Shown here: positions 2,047-40,682 of the stretch, one piece after another | How the letters are laid out: each line of letters begins with the position of its first letter | How positions within the stretch are numbered: position 1 is the first letter of the stretch | NCBI GenBank assembly: GCA_018826075.1 | Contig: JAHKAJ010000014.1 | Coordinates: 20,066 to 84,065 of the forward strand | From: Candidatus Omnitrophota bacterium | Lineage (GTDB): Bacteria > Omnitrophota > Gorgyraeia > Duberdicusellales > 4484-171 | Direction of reading: 5' to 3' | DNA length: 64,000 nt | Translations under genes and position numbers: made by a program | The notes under the pieces: model-generated | What the model saw: the letters and a program-made list of their open reading frames with translations, nothing else | Database searches by the model: none | Told to the model about the DNA's origin: nothing

Positions 2047-2668
2047 TGGTTATTTTGACTAACTCCTGATAGGAAGCCTGCGGGTCAGGGCTTTGCAGCA
2101 CGGCACTGCCCACGCAGATATAATCAACTCCGCTTGATTTTATCAACCGAGCATTGGAAAGCTTGACCCCGCCGTCGATCCCGGTCAGACAATCGGGATA
2201 TTTAGTTTTAAATTTCTTTATTTTTTCCAGGACTCCAGGGATAAACTGCGCCCCGTAAAAACCGGGGTTAACCGACATAAACAGAACCGTATCAACCTCA
2301 TCCAGAAGATACTCAAAATCTTTGATTGCGGTATCAGGATTAACGGCCAGGCCGGCTTTTAGGCCGTTTTTTTTGATTTCAGAAATCAGAGCTGAATGAT
2401 CCTTTTTTATTTCAAAATGATAGATGAGTTTTTCGGCTCCTAAAGCTTTAAAAGCCGCAAGCCACTCCAGGGGATCAGCGACCATTAGATGAGCCTCGCT
2501 CCTCACCGGGATGTTAAGGCCTTTTAAATCATCTAAACTCAAGCTTTTAGAAGGAACAAAAATACCGTCCATGATGTCGATCTGAACAAAATCACAAAAA
2601 CCCGAACAAACCTCAAGCATCTGGATAAGCTTATTCTTTTTATCAGTAAGTAGTGCTGGGACGATCAT
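2039..2668 (-). CDS. rpe: Ribulose-phosphate 3-epimerase
   Basis: Motifs DIMDGIFVP, HLMV, MSVNPGFYGAQFIP and IDGGVK align with the Rpe catalytic residues. Confidence 0.8.
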   Translation of the reverse strand: MIVPALLTDKKNKLIQMLEVCSGFCDFVQIDIMDGIFVPSKSLSLDDLKGLNIPVRSEAHLMVADPLEWLAAFKALGAEKLIYHFEIKKDHSALISEIKKNGLKAGLAVNPDTAIKDFEYLLDEVDTVLFMSVNPGFYGAQFIPGVLEKIKKFKTKYPDCLTGIDGGVKLSNARLIKSSGVDYICVGSAVLQSPDPQASYQELVKITNG

Positions 2669-3831
2669 TTCTTAAAATACTCCTTTAACCGGCTGATTAT
2701 TTTTTGGTTGGGCCGGTAATTCTCAGTTTTCCAAAAATCAACCATCGCTTTTTTGTTCTTTGACCATTGTTTAAAATAAGTCTCCCAACCGTATTCCGGG
2801 CCCTCCCTCTGGACAAACCGAGAATTATCAAGATACTGATAGAGACCGTCAGGAAAACAAGCCTGCGAAACCGCCTTATAAGTCCAATAAGTATATTCGA
2901 AGCCAAAACTTTCAAAGGCCGAAAGCATACCCTCTAACCAATCCAACTCTCCCCAACAACCTCCCCGCCAGTTGATCCCGAACTCTCCGACAAAGATCTT
3001 AACTTTATTTTTAAGTGAAAATTTATAATAGGGTTCGAGATATTTGTAGATTCTTTTTTTATCCCAGGCTAAGCCTTCGATTTTTCCGGGAAATTTAGAA
3101 AAGCGGTTAAAATTGAATGTGTAGCTTAACGGCAAATAAGTATGAATACTGATCGCAACATTCTCCGAAATAAGGCCGGATAAAAAATCTATTTCTTGAG
3201 CCCAGTTATCTCCTTCAATATAAATCGTATGTTTTTTATCGATCTGGCGAATGCGCTTGATGACCTGGGAATAGAAGTTAACTAGATTTTTGGGCGGGAC
3301 TTTTCCCAATACTGGCTCATTTAAAAGGTCATAACCGGCCAGGGCCGGTTCATCCTTAAACCGCTGGCTGAGTTTTTCCCACAAACGATAAGTTCTCTGA
3401 CGGTATGCTTCTTTTTCCCACAAACCAGCCCGGCCGTCACTATCGCTATGCCAATCATAATTTTGAGCACCGGCTGCGGCATGTAGATCCAGGATTATTC
3501 CCAGGTTGTATTTTTTGGCCCAGGAAAAGGCTTTAGCTAAATAGCTAAAACCTTTTTCCGAATAACGGTTAGGTTTAGGCTCTATCAAGCGGCAATTAAA
3601 GGGGAGGCGCACCACCGAAGCCTGCATATCGGCAATATTCTTAAAGTCGGCTTCAGTTATGTAATTATCCCGAAAAAAGGTTTGGAATCTTTCCAGTTCT
3701 TTTTGGCCGTAAAGGCTTTTAAATCTTCGTTTAAAAATATGCTCTGGGATATTGCGGCCGCCGAGGATATAACCCTCCATCAGAAGCCAGCTGCCTAAGT
3801 TTACGCCTTTGACCTTTTTAACTGCCATCAT
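2665..3831 (-). CDS. Glycoside hydrolase family 5 protein (cellulase/mannanase-like), no signal peptide
   Basis: 388 aa. LLNEP (acid/base Glu) and GEFG (nucleophile Glu) motifs. ATGA start/stop overlap with the downstream gene. Confidence 0.65.
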   Translation of the reverse strand: MMAVKKVKGVNLGSWLLMEGYILGGRNIPEHIFKRRFKSLYGQKELERFQTFFRDNYITEADFKNIADMQASVVRLPFNCRLIEPKPNRYSEKGFSYLAKAFSWAKKYNLGIILDLHAAAGAQNYDWHSDSDGRAGLWEKEAYRQRTYRLWEKLSQRFKDEPALAGYDLLNEPVLGKVPPKNLVNFYSQVIKRIRQIDKKHTIYIEGDNWAQEIDFLSGLISENVAISIHTYLPLSYTFNFNRFSKFPGKIEGLAWDKKRIYKYLEPYYKFSLKNKVKIFVGEFGINWRGGCWGELDWLEGMLSAFESFGFEYTYWTYKAVSQACFPDGLYQYLDNSRFVQREGPEYGWETYFKQWSKNKKAMVDFWKTENYRPNQKIISRLKEYFKK

Positions 3832-4127
3832 ATTTTCCAGGGCATTTTCAAATATTGTTTATAGGCACAAATATGGTCATTTTTCCAGTAAGTATGCAAT
3901 ATTTCCTTGACCAAAACGCAGTCAAATTCCTCACCGTTGACAGTTTTCTTGAGGCCAAAGCGCTGGGGATAGATCGTGCAGTAAAACCCGCTTTTAGCAT
4001 CACCTTTCAGGTGCTGACAGGGGTCGTCATAGGCTCCACAGCAGCCGCCGCAGCGGCGGCAAAGCCCTTCCCATTTCTTTTCCTGGCCCAGGAGAGCCTC
4101 TTGATACTCGATATAGCTTTTATTCAT
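3828..4127 (-). CDS. YkgJ-family Cys-cluster protein (putative zinc/iron-chelating domain, CxxCxxCC)
   Basis: 99 aa with CRRCGGCCGAYDDPCQHL and further Cys residues. Confidence 0.55.
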   Translation of the reverse strand: MNKSYIEYQEALLGQEKKWEGLCRRCGGCCGAYDDPCQHLKGDAKSGFYCTIYPQRFGLKKTVNGEEFDCVLVKEILHTYWKNDHICAYKQYLKMPWKI

Positions 4128-4229: not shown

Positions 4230-6341
4230 TTATTTAAAAAGGCTGTAGCTGATGATCAAGCCGCTAAAAACGATTGAGACCATGGACATCAGCTTGATCA
4301 GGATGTTTAACGAGGGGCCGGCAGTATCTTTAAACGGATCACCCACAGTGTCCCCGCAAACTGCGGCCCTATGCGAGTCAGAACCCTTACCGCCGTGATT
4401 TCCTTCTTCGATATATTTCTTGGCATTGTCCCAGGCGCCGCCGGAATTAGCCATGAACACCGCCAGAACAAACCCAGAAGCCAAGGCTCCCACCAGGAGG
4501 CCGATCTCCCCTCTTACCCCTAAAAGCATTCCAGTGGCTATCGGAGCAATGATCGCTAGAAGAGAAGGAATTATCATCTGGTGTTGAGCAGCTTTGGTGG
4601 TCAAGGCAACGCAAGTTGAATAATCAGCTTCAGCTTTACCCTCAAGCAGGCCTTTTATCTGGCGAAATTGACGGCGGACTTCTTCGATTATCGCTGCGGC
4701 TGCCCGGCTGACTGCCCGCAAAGACAGAGCGCAAAAAATAAACGGCAGCATTGCTCCGATAAAAATACCGACAATTACATTTGGATCGAATAAACTTACA
4801 TCCATTGAAACCTTAATGCCCAGGCGAAGAGCTTCATTGATGATGTGGTCCCGGTAAGCAACGATAAGAGCTAAGGCCGTAAGGGCCGCTGAACCAATAG
4901 CAAACCCCTTTCCGGTGGCGGCAGTAGTATTACCCAAAGAATCAAGCTGATCAGTCCTACGACGAACCTCTTTGGGAAGCTGAGCCATTTGGGCTACGCC
5001 GCCGGCATTATCAGCCACCGGCCCGTAAGCATCGGTTGCCAAAGTTATCCCTAAAGTAGAAAGCATGCCTACCGCCGATATACCGACTCCGTAAAGGCCC
5101 ATCCCGAAATCGTTGAAACCGCCGCTGATCGCAAAACTTCCCAGGATCGCGCAGCCGACGGCAAGAACTGCACCTACCGGCGAAAGCATTCCCAAAGCAA
5201 TCCCCTCGATGATCAGGGTAGCCGGGCCGGTTTTTGAAGACCGCGCTAAGTCACGGGTCGGCCGATAGCCGGCTGAAGTAAAAAACTCGGTAAACTGGCC
5301 GATGACTACACCAGTCAAAAGCCCGATCACCACTGAACCAAAAACACCTAAATATTTTTTACCCAAAACATAATAAACAATTAAAAAAGAAAACAAAATC
5401 ACCAACCCTGAAGCTGTCCAGACTCCTCGGCGCAAAGCTCTCAATAGATCTTTCTGGGTTGCCTCTTCTTTAGTCTTGACAAAAAAGAAACCGATCAAGG
5501 ATGCAGCTACACCGCAGGTGGCCATCAGCAGCGGGGTGATCGCTCCTTTCAGGCCTAACCCGGCTGCTGCTGCCAGAGCCATGGTAGCCACGATAGAATC
5601 AACATAAGATTCATAAAGATCAGCCCCCATACCGGCAACATCACCGACATTGTCGCCGACCAAATCTGCGATTACCGCCGGATTCCTGGGGTCATCTTCA
5701 GGGATCCCGGCTTCAACCTTGCCGACCAGATCAGCGCCGACATCTGCAGCCTTAGTATATATTCCGCCGCCTAAACGGGCAAACAGGGCATAGCTTGATG
5801 CCCCCATTCCAAAACAAAGCATAGTCGAAGTGACCGCGGTCAAAAGAGCATCGCCGGATAAAGGCTGATGCACCGTATAATACCATTTTAAAATAACAAA
5901 CCAGGTAGCCATTTCCAGTAAACCCAATCCCACCACCATCAAACCCATTACGGTTCCGGCGCTAAAAGCTAAACGCAGGCCCCGGTTCAAACTGATACTG
6001 GCAGCCTGGGTAGTGCGGGAATTTGATTTTGTAGCTACGTACATCCCCAACCAGCCGCAGAAACCACTGAAAAGGCCTCCGGTAAGAAAGGCAAAGGGAA
6101 CAAAGATGACTAAAAAACCCTTCAAGGCCATGGCCAAAAGGACAAGGAAAACCAAAACAAAGAAAATCGAAACCACTTTATACTGCTGTTTTAGATACCC
6201 TTTTGCGCCCTGAAAAATATAGCCGGATATCTTCTGCATAGTCTCATTACCGGCTGGTTGACGAAAAATCCAGCGGATCAGAAAACCGCAAAAAGCTATA
6301 GCCAGAAACGCTCCCAGGAAGACAAAAATAATTGCATCCAT
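4230..6341 (-). CDS. hppA: Membrane-bound K+/H+ (or Na+) translocating pyrophosphatase
   Basis: 703 aa and polytopic. Motifs [44 protein letters not shown]. Confidence 0.9.
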
Positions 6342-6351
6342 TTTTTACCCC

Positions 6352-7632
<1,281 letters not shown>

Positions 7633-34892: not shown

Positions 34893-35843
34893 TTATCCTT
34901 TCTCCAATGAATTAAACAAGACACTAATTGACTCCTCAAAATGGATCCTTTTTATTGCATCAGCAAAAAGGCTGCTCACTGAGGCTACCTTGATTTTCTT
35001 ACTTTTTTTAGAATCGGCCAAGGGAATTGAATCAGTAATCACTAAGGTGTCAATGCACGACTTATTGATCTTGGAAACTGCATCAGCCGAAAGGATGCCG
35101 TGGGTAATCGCTGCAAAGATCTTCTCGGCTCCGGCTTTCTTCAAAGCCCGGGCTGCTTCCACTATTGAAGACCCAGTGGCAATTATGTCATCGACCAAAA
35201 TCACATTTTTACCATCGACTTCACCCAGGATATGCATGACTTCAGTAGCTTCCGGTGAATTACGCCGTTTATCGACAATAGCCAGGCCGGCCCGAAAACG
35301 TTTAGCATAAGCTCGGGCGGTTTTTATCCCTCCTACATCCGGGGAAGCAATAACCATATTATTAAACCTCATCCTGCGAAAAGAATCGACAAAAACATTA
35401 GTAGCATACAAATGATCCAAGGGGATATCAAAAAAACCTTGGATCTGCCCGGCGTGTAAATCTAAAGTCAAAATTCGGTCGGCACCAGCCTCATCTAAAA
35501 CGTTAGCCACCAGTTTAGCGGTTATCGGGACTCGCGGCTGGTCTTTGCGGTCCTGGCGGGCATAACCAAAATAAGGAATAACCGCGGTGATTCTCTGGGC
35601 TGAAGCCCTTCGCAAAGCATCAAGCATGATCAATAACTCCATTAGATTTTCATTGACCGGCGGACAGGTCGGCTGAATAACAAAGACGTCTTTGCCTCTT
35701 ACATTTTCTCCGATCTCTACTCTTATCTCGCCATCGCTGAAATGGGAAATGAAAGCTTGGCCGAGTTTTACTTTAAGATTCTTACAAATCTTTTCAGCAA
35801 GTTTTTTATTGGCGCTACCGCTGAAAATAACCATTTTATCCAT
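34893..35843 (-). CDS. prs: Ribose-phosphate pyrophosphokinase
   Basis: 316 aa. DLHAGQIQGFFDIPLDHL and VDDIIATGSSI PRPP-binding motifs. Confidence 0.9.
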   Translation of the reverse strand: MDKMVIFSGSANKKLAEKICKNLKVKLGQAFISHFSDGEIRVEIGENVRGKDVFVIQPTCPPVNENLMELLIMLDALRRASAQRITAVIPYFGYARQDRKDQPRVPITAKLVANVLDEAGADRILTLDLHAGQIQGFFDIPLDHLYATNVFVDSFRRMRFNNMVIASPDVGGIKTARAYAKRFRAGLAIVDKRRNSPEATEVMHILGEVDGKNVILVDDIIATGSSIVEAARALKKAGAEKIFAAITHGILSADAVSKINKSCIDTLVITDSIPLADSKKSKKIKVASVSSLFADAIKRIHFEESISVLFNSLEKG

Positions 35844-35846
35844 AGA

Positions 35847-37130
35847 TCACCTCTTGCGACTATCTTTTGTTTTTTTAAGCAGTCTGGCCGGAACCCCTAA
35901 TACCACAGTATTAGCTTTAACGTCTTTAGTGACTACGCTGCCGGCCCCGGTTCGGCTGTTTTTGCCGACTTTTACCGGCGCGACTAAAATCGTATCCGAA
36001 CCGATAAAAGAACCCTGAGAAATCTTTGTTTTCCACTTCTTTTTACCGTCAAAATTAGCCACCACTGTTCCGGCGCCAATATTAACTTTATCTTCCACTA
36101 CCGTATCTCCTAAGTAGCCAAAATGCTTGATTTTCACCTTGTTTCCGACCCGGCAGCGGTTTATTTCCAGGAAATTACCGACCTCGGTATCATCCCCTAT
36201 CCGGGTACCTTGACGCAAATGCAAGAAAGGCCCCAGGGAACAATTGCGGCCAATTATAACACCTTTCTCTATGAAGGTAAAGGGATAAATTGTAGTATTT
36301 TTTCCAATGCTTACCCCCTGCTCAATAAAGACAGTTTCAGCGTCAATTATCCTAACCTGATGCTGAATAAAACCGTTGACTATCCTTTGACGCATGACTT
36401 TTCGGGCTAAAACTAAATCTTCCTGGCTATTAATGCCTTCAATCTCATAAGAATCAGCCAGACGGTACGAACTTAAAGGCTCACCCTGCTGGTAGAATAG
36501 GTCGATGAGATCAGTAAGAAAATATTCCTTTTTCCGGGGGTTCGGTTTAATTTCAGGCAGGTTTTTTAGTAAAGCTTTACGTTGAAAACAATAAATCCCA
36601 CTATTGATCTCCTGGAAAATACTGGCTGCGCTCCCGATCTCTATCTTTTCGATAATCTTCTTGGGGTTACCTTGCGGGTCATAAAGAACAGTTCCCAGGG
36701 AGTTTTCTCTTTTTACTACTGCAGTCAAAAAAGCGCCTGGCCTCTCTTGGCTTAGGTAAAAAGAAATCAGTTTGCCTAAACTGGCTGCGGTTATCAAAGG
36801 AGCATCTCCACAAACAACTAAAAGGTTATCTTGTTTTGCCCGTTTAAGGGCAGCTTCTACGGCTTTAGCCGTACCGTTAAGTTTGGGTTGACGGACAAAC
36901 TCTATGTTAGAGTTCTTAGGAAAATAACTTTTAACTTCTTTTTCTACGGTTTTAGCCTGATAACCGATAACCACCACTATCTTCTTAATGTACTTTTTCA
37001 AACTAAGCAGCTCGCGCAAAACGTAAAAAATCAAAGACTTACCCAGCAAATCCTGCAAAACCTTAGGCTGGGCAGAGTTCATCCGCTCGCCTTTTCCCGC
37101 CGCCAAAACTATTGCCGTAAATTTACTCAT
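35847..37130 (-). CDS. glmU: Bifunctional GlcNAc-1-P uridyltransferase / GlcN-1-P acetyltransferase
   Basis: AIVLAAGKGERM N-terminus. C-terminal hexapeptide-repeat acetyltransferase domain. ATG at 37130 chosen. Confidence 0.85.
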   Translation of the reverse strand: MSKFTAIVLAAGKGERMNSAQPKVLQDLLGKSLIFYVLRELLSLKKYIKKIVVVIGYQAKTVEKEVKSYFPKNSNIEFVRQPKLNGTAKAVEAALKRAKQDNLLVVCGDAPLITAASLGKLISFYLSQERPGAFLTAVVKRENSLGTVLYDPQGNPKKIIEKIEIGSAASIFQEINSGIYCFQRKALLKNLPEIKPNPRKKEYFLTDLIDLFYQQGEPLSSYRLADSYEIEGINSQEDLVLARKVMRQRIVNGFIQHQVRIIDAETVFIEQGVSIGKNTTIYPFTFIEKGVIIGRNCSLGPFLHLRQGTRIGDDTEVGNFLEINRCRVGNKVKIKHFGYLGDTVVEDKVNIGAGTVVANFDGKKKWKTKISQGSFIGSDTILVAPVKVGKNSRTGAGSVVTKDVKANTVVLGVPARLLKKTKDSRKR

Positions 37131-37187
37131 ATTAATTAGCTGCCCTGCTTCGCTCTTCAACAACTAAATTGCAGTGGAGCTTCGCAG

Positions 37188-37506
37188 GGGCAGTTCTGCT
37201 TCGCCCTAAAGGAATCTACGTTTCAAGAATGCAAATCCCGAACCTGACTTAAGATATTTCTCAAATTCTTCTGCGCGTGCTTTATTTGTAAACGTAATAT
37301 ATGTCTGCAATTTCCAAGGCATATAGCGTTTCGTATATAACGAATCTCCCTTGTTATGCTCTCTTATCCTACGCTCTAAATTCTGAGTGAAACCTATATA
37401 ACATCTAGCTGGATATTCTTTGCTCGTTAAAATATATACAATATTCATCTTCAGTTCCTGCGAAGCCCTACTGTTATTTACCTATCGAAGGGCGAAGCAG
37501 AACTGC
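37188..37506. mobile_element. About 320-bp unit bounded by 20-bp perfect inverted repeats (GGGCAGTTCTGCTTCGCCCT), carrying only a small GIY-YIG nuclease gene
   Basis: The left arm 37188..37207 is found reverse-complemented at 37487..37506. The right arm overlaps the last 6 nt of tRNA-Gln. Confidence 0.45.
37206..37448 (-). CDS. GIY-YIG nuclease domain protein (UPF0213-like, 80 aa)
   Basis: IVYILTSKEYPARCYIGFTQNLERRIREHN with the GIY...YIG motif. Confidence 0.65.
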   Translation of the reverse strand: MNIVYILTSKEYPARCYIGFTQNLERRIREHNKGDSLYTKRYMPWKLQTYITFTNKARAEEFEKYLKSGSGFAFLKRRFL

Positions 37507-37572
37507 CCGGTCTGGACTCGAACCAGAAAAGGCAGCTCCAAAAGCTGCTGTGTTACCGATTACACTACCGGG
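37501..37572 (-). tRNA. tRNA-Gln (anticodon UUG), CCA not encoded
   Basis: Hand-folded cloverleaf. Acceptor stem UGCCCGG/CCGGGCA with the U1-A72 pair and G73 discriminator (Gln identity), D-arm GUGU/ACAC, anticodon loop UUUUGGA, T-arm UCUGG-UUCGAGU-CCAGA. Confidence 0.8.
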
Positions 37573-37591
37573 CAATTTTAGTGGTATACTA

Positions 37592-38008
37592 TTATTCCGA
37601 ATCCTTGACTTTCTGCTCTTCCCGGCGGTGATCTTTGCTCGGGGATGTTTTTTCGCGCTGATAAGCATCCAAAACTTTACTTTGAAGATAATCGCGAAAT
37701 TCCTGATTGATCGGGTGGGCTAAATCCTGATGGGTTGCTCCCCGATTTTCATCGCTACTCCTGGGAGCAGGCGGTAACTGCACCCCGCAATAATTGCAAT
37801 ACTGACTGCCAACATCTACTTTTTTGCCGCAGCGGGGGCAAAACTGCTTCAATTTACGCGCCGGCATAGCAACAAAAAGGCCGCTATTTCCTTCAATAAC
37901 CTTGATATTCCTGACTACAAAAGAATTATCAAGGGTGATTGTTGCATAGGCTTTAAGCCGTTTTCCCTCACCTTCTCGAAGTGAAACCCTGACTTCTGTG
38001 ATCTCCAT
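37592..38008 (-). CDS. spoVG: SpoVG-family protein with a C-terminal zinc-ribbon extension
   Basis: MEITEVRVSLREGEGKRLKAYATITLDNSFVVRNIKVIEGNSGLFVAMP, then CPRCGKK...CNYCG. Confidence 0.75.
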   Translation of the reverse strand: MEITEVRVSLREGEGKRLKAYATITLDNSFVVRNIKVIEGNSGLFVAMPARKLKQFCPRCGKKVDVGSQYCNYCGVQLPPAPRSSDENRGATHQDLAHPINQEFRDYLQSKVLDAYQREKTSPSKDHRREEQKVKDSE

Positions 38009-38073
38009 CGACTTTACCTCCTTTTCAAGATGTATCTCGCCTTAACTGGCTTTTTCTAAAAGTAGTTTTCTAT

Positions 38074-38967
38074 TCAAAAAGTCTCTGTCGCAAAAACTTT
38101 CCAAGAAGATGACAGGCTGTTTTTCAAAACTTTTAAAGCTAAAGGAGTATCAGTCGTATAGAGCGCACTGCCTGAACCGGTCACTTTGGCAAAAATATTC
38201 CTTTCAGTCAAATATCGTTTTGCTTTCCTTAACTCTGGACAAATAGAACAGGCATTTTCCTCTAAAGCGTTAAAAATACTTTTCTTAATCAGAGCCGTAT
38301 CTTTACGCTCGAGCGCATTCTGTAATATCTTAGCACTATTAAAAAATTTTGTCAATTTAGGTTTAGCCCGGGCATAGACTGCCTTGGTCGATATTGATTT
38401 TCCCGGCCAGATGATGAAATGCTTAAACTTGCTGTTGATCGCTAAAGGCCTTACCTTTTCGCCTCTTCCGGAAATATAGGCAAAACGGCTCTGGGAAAGA
38501 AAAAAGTTTACATCACTGCCCAGAGCCTGGCCTAAACGATATAGTTGGACCTTGTTTAAACCTAGATCAAATAAACTATTTAAAGCTAAAACAGTGCTGG
38601 CAGCATTAGATGAACCGCCGCCCAACCCTGAACCTACGGGTATATTCTTCTTTAGCCTGATATCTAAACCGTAGGGGATCCGATAACGTTTTTTTATCAG
38701 CTGAGCCGCTTTGACCACTAAATTATTTTTAGTTTCTAAACTTTTACAGTTAGATGAAAGCTTAATCCCAAAGTCAGTCTTTACGGTGACCTCGATCTCA
38801 TCCTTAAGCGAGATGCGCTCGACAATACTCTCTAAGCGGTGAAAACCGTCGGGATATTTACCTATAATATTAAGGTAGAGATTTATCTTGGCGGGGCTAA
38901 GAATTCTGACTTTACTGCCGGAAAATCTTTTTTGCTTTTTTAGCGATACAATCAGCGGAGAGGCCAT
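38074..38967 (-). CDS. ispE: 4-diphosphocytidyl-2-C-methyl-D-erythritol kinase
   Basis: SPAKINLYLNIIG, GHMP kinase motif PVGSGLGGGSSNAA. Start uncertain: the track start is TTG at 39018. ATG at 38967 chosen; it overlaps the transketolase C-terminus. Confidence 0.7.
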   Translation of the reverse strand: MASPLIVSLKKQKRFSGSKVRILSPAKINLYLNIIGKYPDGFHRLESIVERISLKDEIEVTVKTDFGIKLSSNCKSLETKNNLVVKAAQLIKKRYRIPYGLDIRLKKNIPVGSGLGGGSSNAASTVLALNSLFDLGLNKVQLYRLGQALGSDVNFFLSQSRFAYISGRGEKVRPLAINSKFKHFIIWPGKSISTKAVYARAKPKLTKFFNSAKILQNALERKDTALIKKSIFNALEENACSICPELRKAKRYLTERNIFAKVTGSGSALYTTDTPLALKVLKNSLSSSWKVFATETF

Positions 38968-39841
38968 AAAATTCCATAAGCTCCTTGGGCGATCCTGATT
39001 GCCCAAATACATTCTCAATCCCGATGCGCTCGACTTTAACCGGGGCCTTGCGGATCAAAGTTTCAGCTACTGCCGAAAATAGCCCCCCGGTAACTTGATG
39101 CTCTTCGCAAACCAGAATCGTTTTATAGTTTTTAGCCAGGTTTACCAGCAAATCCTCATCTAATGGCTTTAAACTATGTAGGTTGACCACTGCTGCAAAG
39201 ATACCTTCCTTTTCTAAAATAGCGCTGGCAGCCAGAGCTTCCTGAACCATGATCCCGCAAGCAATGATTGCCAAGTCTTTTCCTTCCTTTAAAGATTGCC
39301 CCTTTCCGAAAATAAAATTAGCTTTGTTCTCGAGGCTGGAAATCTTTGAACGGCCGAGCCGAATATAGAAAGGGCCCTTATTTTTATAAGCGCAGATAAC
39401 CGCTTCCCGGGTTTGGGGGCCGTCAGCCGGAACTATTATCTTCATGTTAGGAATAGCTCTGAAAAAGTTTATATCTTCAAGCGCCTGGTGTGACGCCCCG
39501 TCTTCGCCTACGGTTATTCCGCCATGGGTAGCAACAATTTTAACATTAAAATTATTGCTGCAAATCGAATTACGCACCTGATCCAGAGCCCGGGCAGTAG
39601 CGAACATAGCGAAAGTCGAAGCAAAAACAACTTTACCGCTGCTGGCCAGCCCTGCGGCTGTGGCCATCATGTTCTGTTCAGCAACCCCAAAGTTAAAAAA
39701 CCGGTCGGGAAAGGCTTTTTGAAAGATCGCGGTCCGGGTAGACCCGGAAAGGTCAGCGTCCAAAACAACTAGATCTTTATCTTTCTGCCCCAACTCGACT
39801 AAAGTCTGGCCGTAAACGTCTCTGGCGTATACTTTATCCAT
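38912..39841 (-). CDS. Transketolase, C-terminal subunit (pyrimidine-binding + C-terminal domains)
   Basis: 309 aa. GEDGASHQ and other transketolase central-domain motifs. Split-gene arrangement. Confidence 0.8.
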   Translation of the reverse strand: MDKVYARDVYGQTLVELGQKDKDLVVLDADLSGSTRTAIFQKAFPDRFFNFGVAEQNMMATAAGLASSGKVVFASTFAMFATARALDQVRNSICSNNFNVKIVATHGGITVGEDGASHQALEDINFFRAIPNMKIIVPADGPQTREAVICAYKNKGPFYIRLGRSKISSLENKANFIFGKGQSLKEGKDLAIIACGIMVQEALAASAILEKEGIFAAVVNLHSLKPLDEDLLVNLAKNYKTILVCEEHQVTGGLFSAVAETLIRKAPVKVERIGIENVFGQSGSPKELMEFYGLSADCIAKKAKKIFRQ

Positions 39842-40682
39842 TTTTTAGGTCTTCCTCATCTTTTGCTATCTCTTCTAATTCACGAATAGCAATAGTTTTT
39901 TCTTCCTGGGTAGGCGGCCTTCCGTGAAAATCGACAACATGTTCCATAAAAGAAACTCCCTTACCCTTTACCGTATGGGCAACGATCGCTGTGGGTTTTA
40001 GCTTAATCGTTTTTGCTTGCGCAAAAGCCTCCAGTAATTCCTTAATATTATGCCCATCGCACTGGATAACATGCCAGCCGAACGATTCCCACTTATTGAC
40101 TAACGGCTCTAAACTCATAATTTCGTCGGTCCGGCCGTCAATCTGAAAACGATTATAGTCGATGATCGCACAAAGATTATCCAGTTTAAAATGGGCAACT
40201 GCCATTGCTGCTTCCCAAATATTTCCTTCCTGGTTTTCGCCGTCACCGATAAGGCAATAGACTCTTGAGTCTTTGCGGTCGAGCCGGGCTGCCAAAGCCA
40301 TACCTAAAGAAACCGATAAACCTTGCCCTAGTGATCCACTGCCGACCTCAATTCCCGGAGTTCTCCGGTCAGGATGGCCCTGTAAAGTAGAACCTAATTT
40401 TCGCAGGGTCAAGAGTTTTTTCTCGGAAAAATAACCGCATAAGGCCAAAGCCGCATAAACTGCCGGGCAACAATGCCCTTTAGAAAGATGAAACTTATCT
40501 CTTTGCGGCCATTGAGGATTCTTAGGATCATGCCTTAAAACATCAAAATAAAGGCAGGCGATTATTTCTGTTGATGATAACGAACCTCCGGGGTGGCCGG
40601 ATCCGGCTTCGGCCAGCATGGTGATTATAAGCTTCCTCATCTGGTTTGCCTTGGCCTTTAAAACTTTTATTTTATTTTCCAT
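39834..40682 (-). CDS. Transketolase, N-terminal (TPP-binding) subunit
   Basis: 282 aa. SGHPGGSLS, GDGENQEGNIWEA TPP-binding motifs. 8-nt overlap with the C-terminal subunit gene. Confidence 0.8.
   Translation of the reverse strand: MENKIKVLKAKANQMRKLIITMLAEAGSGHPGGSLSSTEIIACLYFDVLRHDPKNPQWPQRDKFHLSKGHCCPAVYAALALCGYFSEKKLLTLRKLGSTLQGHPDRRTPGIEVGSGSLGQGLSVSLGMALAARLDRKDSRVYCLIGDGENQEGNIWEAAMAVAHFKLDNLCAIIDYNRFQIDGRTDEIMSLEPLVNKWESFGWHVIQCDGHNIKELLEAFAQAKTIKLKPTAIVAHTVKGKGVSFMEHVVDFHGRPPTQEEKTIAIRELEEIAKDEEDLKNG

Follow-up and report, generated by a model that had tools for sequence, protein, structure and literature searches.

Genes and features of the locus

The window analyzed here is a 64-kb stretch of DNA from a Candidatus Omnitrophota genome, and all the genes at the locus lie on its minus strand (Table 1). 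Between spoVG and glmU are located a tRNA-Gln gene and a short ORF encoding only a GIY-YIG domain. This gene content had been proposed in a first-pass annotation and was borne out by Rfam, ARAGORN, and Pfam. The prs gene is downstream of glmU, and the conserved block is spoVG–tRNA-Gln–glmU–prs. The order of the module in the window is tRNA, hairpin unit A, ORF, H1′, and inverted hairpin unit B. The GIY-YIG ORF is the only ORF inside it, and a HUH/Y1 (IS200/IS605-like) transposase is absent. No recombinase genes were found among the ORFs at 35500–40000 or in the gene tables of the relatives.

Table 1. Features of the locus in the 64-kb window
Feature	Position	Strand	Basis
tRNA-Gln(UUG), CCA not encoded	37503–37574 (Rfam RF00005, 62.4 bits); 37502–37575 (ARAGORN)	−	Rfam, ARAGORN
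80-aa single-domain GIY-YIG nuclease ORF	37206–37448	−	PF01541, E = 3e-15
spoVG, zinc ribbon inserted in domain, upstream flanking gene	37592–38008	−	
glmU, ATG at 37130, downstream flanking gene	35847–37130	−	
Right repeat arm: tRNA 3′ end (6 nt) + half-site H1 of unit A (TTCTGCTTCGCCCT)	37489–37508		
Left repeat arm (H1′), minus strand AGGGCGAAGCAGAACTGCCC, between ORF stop and unit B	37188–37207		
Hairpin unit A, forward (tRNA-sense), TTCTGC-TTC-GCCCT...AGGGC-TTC-GCAGGAA	37455–37502	−	Sequence, family structure
Hairpin unit B, inverted relative to tRNA and ORF, CCCTGC-TTC-GCTC...GAGC-TTC-GCAGGG	37143–37189	+	

The GIY-YIG protein

The Pfam models matching the 80-aa protein are of the GIY-YIG type only, and no accessory domain was detected. 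The conserved residues are Y5, Y17, G19, R27, H31, and E63, together with a C-terminal EFEKYLKSGSGFAF motif. Y5, Y17, R27, H31, and E63 are invariant in the family, which also has its own invariant C-terminal motif, EFEKYLKSGSG.AF. The AlphaFold2 model is one compact domain with a mean pLDDT of 93. In the alignment and the model, the catalytic residues are intact and the predicted fold is SLX1-like. The closest protein by sequence is UPF0213 BH0048 (profile E = 7e-14; SLX1, ~1e-6), and the closest by fold in the Foldseek search are SLX1 and HIGLE (TM score, 0.71–0.74). The NCBIfam search gave no specific family for the protein, and the group I intron endonuclease model TIGR01453 matched weakly and partially (18 bits versus a cut-off of 56). 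The wider family comprises ~4,200 clusters at 50% identity (E ≤ 1e-10). In tblastn searches, neither the window protein nor a Rhizobium homolog had a match among 72,556 plasmids.

Anatomy of the inverted repeat and hairpin units

The perfect 20-bp inverted repeat reported in the first-pass annotation is real. Its left arm, GGGCAGTTCTGCTTCGCCCT, was placed correctly, and the right arm is the exact reverse complement at the position in Table 1, not at 37487–37506. None of 100 dinucleotide-preserving shuffles matched the repeat, by which a chance origin was rejected. The claimed overlap of the right arm with the tRNA also stands; the 6 nt at the 3′ end of the tRNA gene (GGGCAG, 37503–37508), consisting of GGGCA and the discriminator G, are part of the arm. 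The left arm, H1′, repeats the tRNA-end/H1 junction in inverted form, and the TAG stop codon of the ORF overlaps it. The only repeat of the tRNA end in the window is the inverted one.

Unit A begins at the first base 3′ of the tRNA discriminator. Its 3′ GGAA, located 6 nt before the ATG of the ORF, is likely a Shine–Dalgarno sequence. As folded DNA, unit A gives the family structure but a weak hairpin (z = −0.7). Unit B ends 13 nt before the ATG of glmU, and its DNA fold has z values of −2.3 and −2.9 for the plus and minus strands, respectively. Units A and B form a second inverted repeat in another register (44 nt, 80% complementary, 37145–37188/37457–37500), which indicates that one and the same repeat unit makes up both flanks of the ORF, the downstream flank containing ~1.4 copies. 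Shorter repeats had been noted just outside both arms. The sequence GCTTCGCAGG (37179–37188) does lie outside the left arm, but its complement (37457–37466) is inside the right arm. The 20-bp inverted repeat is the tRNA-end/hairpin junction paired with H1′, and its arms are half-sites of a ~45-nt hairpin unit. They are not the termini of a ~320-bp cassette, as had been supposed; the right one is the tRNA end plus H1, and the left one is an additional half-site in the inverted orientation. The ORF of most relatives is downstream of both hairpins and outside the arm pair, which also indicates that the arms do not delimit the gene.

A dispersed family of hairpin repeats

The family unit is ~40–50 nt long (TTCTGC-TTC-GCC...GGC-TTC-GCAGGAA) and is composed of a 6-bp basal stem, a conserved 3 × 3 TTC/TTC internal loop, and a variable apical stem. 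In the covariation test on the unit, 97.5% of the cells were paired and compensatory changes were found in 8 of 15 pairs, a result that 0 of 500 shuffles reached. G·T pairs far exceed A·C pairs (112 versus 11), and this excess indicates that the hairpin is under selection on one strand. A TGTC tag is conserved with H1′ before hairpin B. The module is ~130–450 bp in length, and its sequence and structure are conserved across phyla. Beside it, some loci carry small cargo, namely toxin–antitoxin-like, type I restriction–modification, TIR, HNH, and NYN genes. Rfam covariance models matched the tRNA alone and not the module, both in the window region (E < 1) and in 10 related loci (E < 0.1). A reading of the units as terminators was rejected, as they are not followed by a T-run.

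The unit pattern was matched in at least 119 stretches. After the hairpin filter, units were found in at least 51 species-level genomes, almost all of which belong to Omnitrophota. One Omnitrophota genome alone contains at least 19 units across 14 stretches. Most units have no nuclease gene nearby. ORF-less units also occur at non-tRNA sites and in both orientations, and units form inverted doublets and tandem arrays, the latter at the related loci L001 and L019. Within the 64-kb window, the motif is confined to this locus, and the dispersal is seen in the genomes of the relatives.

Linkage to the 3′ ends of tRNA and tmRNA

Among the 116 tRNA/tmRNA genes in the loci, 53 have a unit that abuts their exact 3′ end in the same orientation, and none shows any of the other three possible configurations of unit and tRNA. 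The abutting units are carried by ~20 isoacceptors and tmRNA. The boundary of the module coincides with the 3′ end of the functional RNA, being located after CCA in genes that encode it and after the discriminator in the others, and it is not at a fixed distance from any DNA structure. Of 55 loci of the wider protein family sampled without selection from metagenomes, 40 have a same-strand tRNA/tmRNA 55–305 nt upstream, and none of the 55 has an opposite-strand tRNA within 400 nt. The junction and H1′ are complementary over a median of 11 nt (versus 7 in permuted controls), and in 40 of 53 loci the complementarity includes 2 nt or more of the tRNA end. The junction-complementary H1′ is kept across the family and covaries with the junction, including its tRNA-specific bases. 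This tRNA-linked arrangement of a GIY-YIG gene and a hairpin module recurs across bacteria behind many tRNA and tmRNA genes, and no description of it was found in the literature.

The first-pass annotation had suggested tRNA-targeted integration. One part of this suggestion holds, since the boundary is at the tRNA 3′ end in every case. The other does not, as the window has neither a direct repeat nor an integrase. If the locus were what remains of a genomic island inserted by an integrase at a tRNA attB site, the repeats would be decayed att sites and the nuclease leftover cargo; such islands likewise have their boundary at a tRNA/tmRNA 3′ end. Direct duplications of 7–16 nt of the tRNA 3′ end are present in five relatives (L003, L011, L018, L102, and L023), and the small cargo genes adjoining the module at some loci are also in line with an island. 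On the other hand, none of the loci yielded an integrase, the junction in the window is duplicated in the inverted orientation, not directly, and a module of 0.13–0.45 kb has a sequence and structure conserved across phyla. The covariation of the unit hairpin is not expected of att remnants, either. We consider such an origin very improbable, and it was rejected on the grounds of the missing recombinase and the inverted duplication.

That the boundary tracks the RNA 3′ end is accommodated no less well by a constraint or process at the RNA level than by DNA targeting. A single transcript may span the tRNA, the module, and the nuclease mRNA (with glmU in this case), and the hairpins and the junction/H1′ pairing may act in the tRNA precursor as a processing or regulatory element. 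The module would direct the RNase cleavage that frees the tRNA, and translation would be gated because the Shine–Dalgarno sequence, which lies in the hairpin's 3′ half immediately ahead of the ATG, is sequestered. Selection for processing and gating would maintain the repeats, and the nuclease would be an ordinary coexpressed gene. The exact coincidence of the boundary with the processed 3′ end, CCA encoded or not, favors this explanation, as does the strand asymmetry of unit A toward the transcribed sense strand. The 471-nt transcript folds with z = −6.1, and its 5′ and 3′ flanks pair over a long range around the ORF. In all the loci that were read, GGA or GGAGG is present in the 3′ half of the hairpin, 6–10 nt ahead of the ATG. 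The tRNA and the ORF are not separated by any promoter-like or terminator-like site. The covariation of H1′ with tRNA-specific bases of the junction also agrees with pairing in a precursor. However, the ORF-less units at non-tRNA sites, the tandem arrays, the occurrence in both orientations, the duplicated tRNA 3′ fragments, and the movement of the ORF are left unexplained. SsnA, the characterized analog, is inactive on RNA (PMC11893778). Moreover, such regulation is compatible with DNA mobility, as the ribosome-binding site of insertion sequences is likewise hidden when they are transcribed by read-through. We regard a purely RNA-level function as rather unlikely; the RNA stem in the tRNA precursor that the first-pass annotation offered as its alternative keeps some probability.

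Probable mobility of the ORF

The nuclease gene does not occupy a fixed housekeeping locus. Homologs that are 61–86% identical are located behind tRNA-Gln(UUG), tRNA-Gln(CUG), tRNA-Ser, tRNA-Glu, and tmRNA. Between the window and L001, the GIY-YIG proteins are 86% identical, versus 44% for GlmU, 55% for SpoVG, and 70% for Prs. The ORF is present at the orthologous site in some relatives and absent in others, in support of the first-pass annotation. The spoVG–tRNA-Gln–glmU site contains the ORF in the window, L001, and L012, and the orthologous tRNA-Gln/glmU site contains the module without the ORF in L022, L067, and L082. A remnant of the ORF, with ~10 nt of the 5′ end and ~25 nt of the 3′ end, remains at the orthologous site in L057. 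The placement of the ORF varies by lineage (A–ORF–H1′–B or A–H1′–B–ORF), and the hairpin repeat is found on both sides of the ORF also in L001, L003, L007, and L012.

These observations bear on another explanation, a fixed housekeeping gene of the UPF0213 type beside a chance or locally duplicated inverted repeat. The homology to BH0048 described above and the spoVG–tRNA-Gln–GIY-YIG–glmU order shared with L001 and L012 would suit it. Stand-alone UPF0213/SLX1-like proteins (BH0048 and EF2693) have the same minimal GIY-YIG domain and are nearest in sequence and fold, and a protein fused to a TrmH-like methyltransferase once prompted speculation about a link to RNA or tRNA (Dunin-Horkawicz et al., 2006, PMC1564403). 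The family described here differs in its own C-terminal motif and in its tRNA-end/hairpin-module context, which is unreported for UPF0213. The explanation is already contradicted by the shuffles, the dispersal of the repeat family, the presence of the gene at many different tRNAs, and the lack of the ORF at the orthologous site in four other species, and we give it hardly any credence. The arm sequence recurs in >100 other places, the repeats are kept in the relatives, and the gene moves between sites; none of the three findings that the first-pass annotation named as grounds for rejecting it is thus borne out.

A classical free-standing homing endonuclease could account for the movement in another way. 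It would cut double-stranded DNA in ORF-less modules, and the ORF would be copied from an occupied module by double-strand-break repair with the units as homology arms, merely exploiting elements of the host. The presence or absence of the ORF at one site, where the module is present every time, is a feature shared with homing enzymes such as T4 Seg and I-TevI, as is the GIY-YIG catalytic domain. The ORF lies in the 5–15-nt spacer of the A–spacer–H1′–B composite in the window, L001, and L003, and there are few ORFs and many units among the examined stretches per genome. T4 SegB, which is situated in a tRNA gene cluster and cuts within the cluster, is a precedent (PMC2330249). However, the known GIY-YIG homing enzymes are proteins of 200–250 aa that require a C-terminal DNA-binding domain, whereas the 80-aa protein consists of the catalytic domain alone, and no dispersed hairpin repeats are associated with homing enzymes. 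The ORF does not keep a constant place with respect to the units, the homology arms would be just ~45–60 bp, and the arrival of the units at tRNA ends is left unexplained. We judge homing of this type improbable.

Comparison with known systems

The closest known system is the Ssn/SRM pair, and REP/RAYT is a further analog; the comparison concerns the layout of protein and repeat and is not an assignment to the Ssn clade (cd10448). Ssn nucleases are single-domain GIY-YIG proteins flanked by dispersed hairpin repeats (NTS/SRM), and they cut ssDNA beside the hairpin in a strand-specific manner (Chenal et al., Nat Commun 2025, PMC11893778). The authors likened NTS–ssnA–NTS to an insertion sequence and to REP/RAYT; tRNA is nowhere mentioned in their paper (PMC11893778). 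Both proteins have a single GIY-YIG domain of <100 aa and lack a DNA-binding domain. In both systems, the gene is flanked on both sides by the hairpin repeat, as by unit A on one side and H1′ with unit B on the other in the window. The Ssn repeat is dispersed in many, mostly intergenic copies; in the present case, such copies are seen in the relatives, and the window has the motif at this locus only. The repeat is also directional, with a conserved sequence beside the hairpin, to which the G·T/A·C asymmetry and H1′ with its TGTC tag correspond here. In contrast, the hairpin of the present family is longer, with its 6-bp basal stem and 3 × 3 TTC/TTC loop, and the module is tied to the exact tRNA/tmRNA 3′ end with an inverted copy of the junction. 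Among solved structures, those of UPF0213 and SLX1 are the best relatives of the protein and none is named Ssn, and plasmid copies of the gene were not found. The published SRM motif, HGTCWYN(0-2)YYVSBRHN(0-5)WNVSBRGN(0-2)RNCYNB, had no matches within 500 nt of 27 genes, and its 3 matches in 87 kb around 80 genes are approximately at the chance level (0–2 per shuffle).

The resemblance to REP/RAYT lies in a nuclease gene that is single or in low copy number and has a short palindromic repeat, in inverted copies, on its two sides, and in the dispersal of that repeat, with inverted doublets and tandem arrays as in BIMEs and REPINs. Strand-specific recognition of the hairpin would be a further common feature, if the analogy holds. 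The enzyme is, however, a GIY-YIG protein and not an HUH/Y1 protein, with no known strand-transfer chemistry, and REPs bear GTAG or CGTC tags and are not bound to tRNA 3′ ends.

Proposed mechanism

Here, we propose that the locus is most likely a mobile or domesticated nuclease–repeat pair targeted to tRNA 3′ ends. We lean toward its being one copy of a pair in which an SLX1/UPF0213-like nuclease is found within its own hairpin-repeat family. In the layout of the module, the processed 3′ end of the tRNA or tmRNA is followed by the forward hairpin A, the inverted junction copy H1′, and the inverted hairpin B. For the substrate of the nuclease, the cleavage position, and the way in which copies are made, we infer the following steps, by analogy with Ssn nucleases and REP/RAYT. 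Recognition of the hairpin by the protein would take place on one strand, in single-stranded nucleic acid, followed by a nick beside the hairpin; the strand asymmetry of the unit is the indirect support for such cleavage. Repair or recombination at the nicks may then transfer the ORF between module-bearing tRNA sites. The same nick repair may leave ORF-less modules behind, via deletion of the ORF and duplication of the units, which would explain the build-up of units behind many Omnitrophota tRNA genes. A GIY-YIG nuclease alone is incapable of strand transfer, which counts against the proposal at the copying step. The missing SRM motif, the boundary that follows the RNA 3′ end, the confinement of the motif to this locus within the window, the lineage-dependent placement of the ORF, and the weak hairpin of unit A in the window also weigh against it.

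A bolder version of this proposal, which we entertain only tentatively, is that the pair represents a new class of mobile or domesticated element specific to tRNA/tmRNA 3′ ends. Such an element would consist of a ~80-aa SLX1-like GIY-YIG nuclease and a self-complementary hairpin module beginning at the processed RNA 3′ end, with the inverted copy of the target junction as a guide or an insertion footprint. It would insert or home in a manner unlike that of integrases, HUH transposases, and classical homing endonucleases, and it might have seeded the REP-like families behind the tRNA genes of Omnitrophota.

The locus provides a genomic context and a testable substrate for a very large family of minimal GIY-YIG proteins whose function is unknown. 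It widens the pairing of nuclease and hairpin repeat known from Ssn/SRM, adding a second repeat architecture and new phyla, and it reveals an unexpected rule, in which the module is located exactly at tRNA/tmRNA 3′ ends and the junction is copied in the inverted orientation. The family is also a possible source of structure- or sequence-specific nucleases for single-stranded nucleic acids. If the nuclease recognizes the hairpins, the pair may help to account for the spread of REP-like repeats in the absence of an HUH transposase and for the status of tRNA 3′ ends as hot spots of recombination.

Anatomy of the tRNA-Gln–nuclease locus

The gene for the 80-aa single-domain GIY-YIG nuclease is flanked by hairpin repeats, termed unit A (tRNA-sense orientation) and unit B (inverted), and its ORF starts 6 nt past the GGAA of unit A. 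The neighboring SpoVG carries a Zn_Ribbon_1 insertion (residues 56–75) within the SpoVG domain; among Omnitrophota relatives, the insertion is conserved in L001 and L009 (L numbers denote related loci from other genomes, with their own coordinates). The window is assigned to a Candidatus Omnitrophota bacterium because the nearest matches to its proteins are MAG proteins with 99% identity.

Features of the locus, in minus-strand gene order
Feature	Position	Strand	Remarks
ispE	38074–39018	minus	
spoVG	37592–38008	minus	zinc ribbon inserted
tRNA-Gln(UUG)	37503–37574	minus	CCA not encoded
Unit A	37455–37502	minus	first base directly after tRNA discriminator
80-aa ORF	37206–37448	minus	GIY-YIG, PF01541, E = 3e-15; only GIY-YIG-type Pfam models match
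H1'	37188–37207		inverted copy of tRNA end and the unit's first half-site; overlapped by ORF stop codon
Unit B	37143–37189	inverted	between H1' and glmU
glmU	ATG at 37130	minus	
prs		minus	beyond glmU

The first-pass annotation described 20-bp inverted repeats around what looked like a mobile or homing cassette or its remnant. The 20-mer GGGCAGTTCTGCTTCGCCCT is located at 37188–37207, where the left arm had been placed. Its exact reverse complement also exists and takes in the last 6 nt of the tRNA-Gln gene as described, but it lies at 37489–37508, 2 nt to the right of the position first assigned. The 20-mer inverted repeat had no match in 100 shuffles; a fixed housekeeping gene beside a chance repeat fits less well and is the least credible of the explanations considered. 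A second inverted repeat (37145–37188/37457–37500; 44 nt, 80% complementary) runs in another register, and the flanks are therefore copies of one repeat unit, of which the downstream side of the ORF shows about 1.4 inverted copies. Since H1' is an inverted copy of the tRNA end and half-site, the repeat first described is the tRNA/unit junction paired with H1'.

Structure, dispersal, and tRNA linkage of the hairpin unit

Reading of the related loci gave the layout TTCTGC-TTC-GCC[variable]GGC-T(T/A)C-GCAGGAA, which consists of a 6-bp basal stem, a conserved 3 × 3 internal loop, a second stem variable in sequence with its pairing kept, and a variable apex. When 19 short units were aligned without gaps, 97.5% of the cells were paired; compensatory changes occurred at 8 of the 15 pairs, and none of 500 shuffles came up to the observed value. 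The usual composite is unit A, a spacer of 5–15 nt, H1' (GCGAAGCAGAA) with TGTYC, and the inverted unit B. The units of L056, L078, L083, and L101 (MAG labelled Proteobacteria, JAIYCX01) form a subtype with a C-rich, apparently unstructured apical segment, and their basal stem and internal loop are still conserved. Four forward units form a tandem array in L001 (3790–3991), where they separate tRNA-Gln from the nuclease ORF, and another in L019 (2365–2760), which has neither tRNA nor nuclease gene nearby.

When the pattern TTCTGCTTCGCCN{18,28}GCTWCGCAG was searched for in a single genome of each species, at least 119 stretches matched. Of the 177 units in the loci collected, 151 passed a hairpin filter; these came from at least 51 genomes, one of which held 19 or more units spread over 14 stretches. 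Among the matches listed, the unit-bearing genomes were almost all Omnitrophota, some mislabelled Planctomycetia. A few matches in Enterobacterales and Nocardioides were located inside genes and were rejected as chance. In L012 (4247–4299), the nuclease stop codon is closely followed by a second unit copy, within which the contig ends. Assemblies typically break at repeats in this way, and unit counts in MAGs are thus underestimates.

For 53 of the 116 tRNA/tmRNA genes in the loci, a unit of the same orientation abuts the 3' end (0 or –1 nt); no gene of the 116 has a unit at its 5' end or one of opposite orientation. The RNA genes with abutting units comprise about 20 isoacceptors and tmRNA, and the nuclease gene is absent from most unit loci. 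The junction reads CCA|TTCTGC in genes with an encoded CCA and discriminator|TTCTGC in those without. Encoded CCA is mostly missing from the Omnitrophota tRNA-Gln genes read, including that of the window (37503–37508), and is present in most other unit-adjoining tRNA genes; with or without it, the functional 3' end is the start of the unit.

G·T pairs outnumber A·C pairs by 112 to 11 in 141 distinct units, which indicates that the hairpin is selected on one strand. An RNA-level role of the module (the hairpin set starting at the tRNA 3' end) is the main rival to the nuclease–repeat pair proposed below, and perhaps complementary to it. This sense-strand selection of unit A speaks for such a role, as do the coincidence of the module boundary with the processed RNA end, a Shine–Dalgarno sequence within the 3' half of the hairpin ahead of the ATG, and the transcript fold (z = –6.1); we regard it as possible but rather unlikely to be the main explanation.

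The nuclease and its wider family

The AF2 model has high confidence (mean pLDDT 93). Among proteins of solved structure, UPF0213 BH0048 (profile E = 7e-14) and SLX1/HIGLE (TM 0.71–0.74) are the closest relatives. Residues Y5, Y17, G19, R27, H31, and E63 are invariant in the family, which has the C-terminal motif EFEKYLKSGSG.AF. The protein has no DNA-binding domain; a classical dsDNA homing endonuclease fits the locus less well and is improbable. Clustered at 50% identity, the family (E ≤ 1e-10) counts about 4,200 clusters, and Bacteroidales and Rhizobium lusitanum proteins belong to it; no plasmid-encoded relatives were found in PLSDB. The R. lusitanum gene lies 209 nt 3' of tRNA-Ala(GGC), with the junction CCA|GCCTTCGC....

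Of 80 metagenome loci picked by protein alone, 55 had at least 400 nt upstream, and a same-strand tRNA or tmRNA ended within 400 nt upstream in 40 of these 55 (tmRNA in 7); no opposite-strand tRNA occurred within that distance. Their layout is CCA|N-CCTTCGC hairpin A, spacer, GCGAAGG-N'-TG (H1'), hairpin B, and ORF. Between junction and downstream DNA, the longest exact complement had a median of 11 nt, against a median of 7 and a maximum of 8 for junctions paired with other loci. In 40 of 53 loci, this complement takes in 2 nt or more of the tRNA end; in at least seven, it takes in 5–7 nt, so that tRNA-specific bases are copied as in the window. H1' may be a selected pairing partner or else a templated insertion footprint.

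Movement and loss of the ORF

Homologs of the nuclease gene lie downstream of tRNA-Gln(UUG) (window, L001, and L012), tRNA-Gln(CUG) (L007 and L132), tRNA-Ser (L011 and L127), tRNA-Glu (L013), tmRNA (L015), tRNA-Val (L017), tRNA-Lys (L018), and tRNA-Ala (L108). The window nuclease shares 86% identity with that of L001, compared with 44% for the flanking GlmU, 55% for SpoVG, and 70% for Prs. The ORF lies between unit A and H1' in the window's lineage and 3' of both hairpins in most others. At the orthologous spoVG–tRNA-Gln–glmU site, L022, L067, and L082 have a module without the ORF, and in L057 about 10 nt from the start of the ORF and about 25 nt from its end remain. This remnant marks an internal deletion, and at least some ORF-less modules thus come from ORF-bearing ones.

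Extra DNA is inserted precisely at the tRNA/module boundary in L003, L011, L018, L023, L099, and L102, with a tRNA-end duplication of 3–16 nt. The remnant of an integrase island fits less well as an explanation of the window locus and is very improbable. In L099 (511–2927), about 2.3 kb separates tRNA-Gln(UUG), with a degenerate unit, from an intact unit preceding glmU; it encodes a toxin–antitoxin-like pair (116 aa, and an HTH protein of 114 aa), and an ORF of 173 aa runs into the unit. The tRNA/module junction looks like an insertion hot spot. The 883-bp insert of L003 (1507–2389), after tRNA-Gln(CUG), contains a 260-aa ORF without Pfam matches and ends in a duplicate of the last 7 tRNA nt (GGGGCAG). 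In L018 (3763–3895), the 16-nt 3' end of tRNA-Lys (CCCACCGGGCTCACCA) recurs 130 nt downstream. This second copy directly precedes a diverged module, the nuclease gene, and, further on, a DUF3800 gene and a type I restriction–modification system. Defence-like or nuclease cargo directly 3' of the nuclease gene was seen in L015 (TIR-domain protein and DUF6485; 4439–6931) and L007 (HNH and NYN genes; 2390–3856).

Comparison with Ssn/SRM and proposed mechanism

The nearest described system is Ssn/SRM. An Ssn protein has about 94 aa and GIY-YIG as its single domain (CDD cd10448), and its gene lies between hairpin repeats that number in the hundreds. These enzymes cleave single-stranded DNA next to the hairpin and do so on one strand only; the authors likened the arrangement to IS200/IS605 and REP/RAYT (PMC11893778). 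The window locus resembles this system in architecture. However, its hairpin is longer and differently built, and window-type loci have a strict tie to tRNA/tmRNA 3' ends and an inverted junction copy. The Ssn paper never mentions tRNA (PMC11893778), the published SRM motif was not found around window-type nuclease genes, and no description of the 3'-end link with the inverted junction copy was found in the literature searched. Given the shared architecture and these differences, the best-supported reading is that the nuclease and repeats would work like Ssn or REP/RAYT.

Here, we propose, as a somewhat probable explanation, that the locus is a nuclease–repeat pair. The nuclease would bind to its own hairpin when this is single-stranded, and nicks made by it would drive the ORF from one module-bearing tRNA site to another; the same nicks would drive decay into ORF-less modules.
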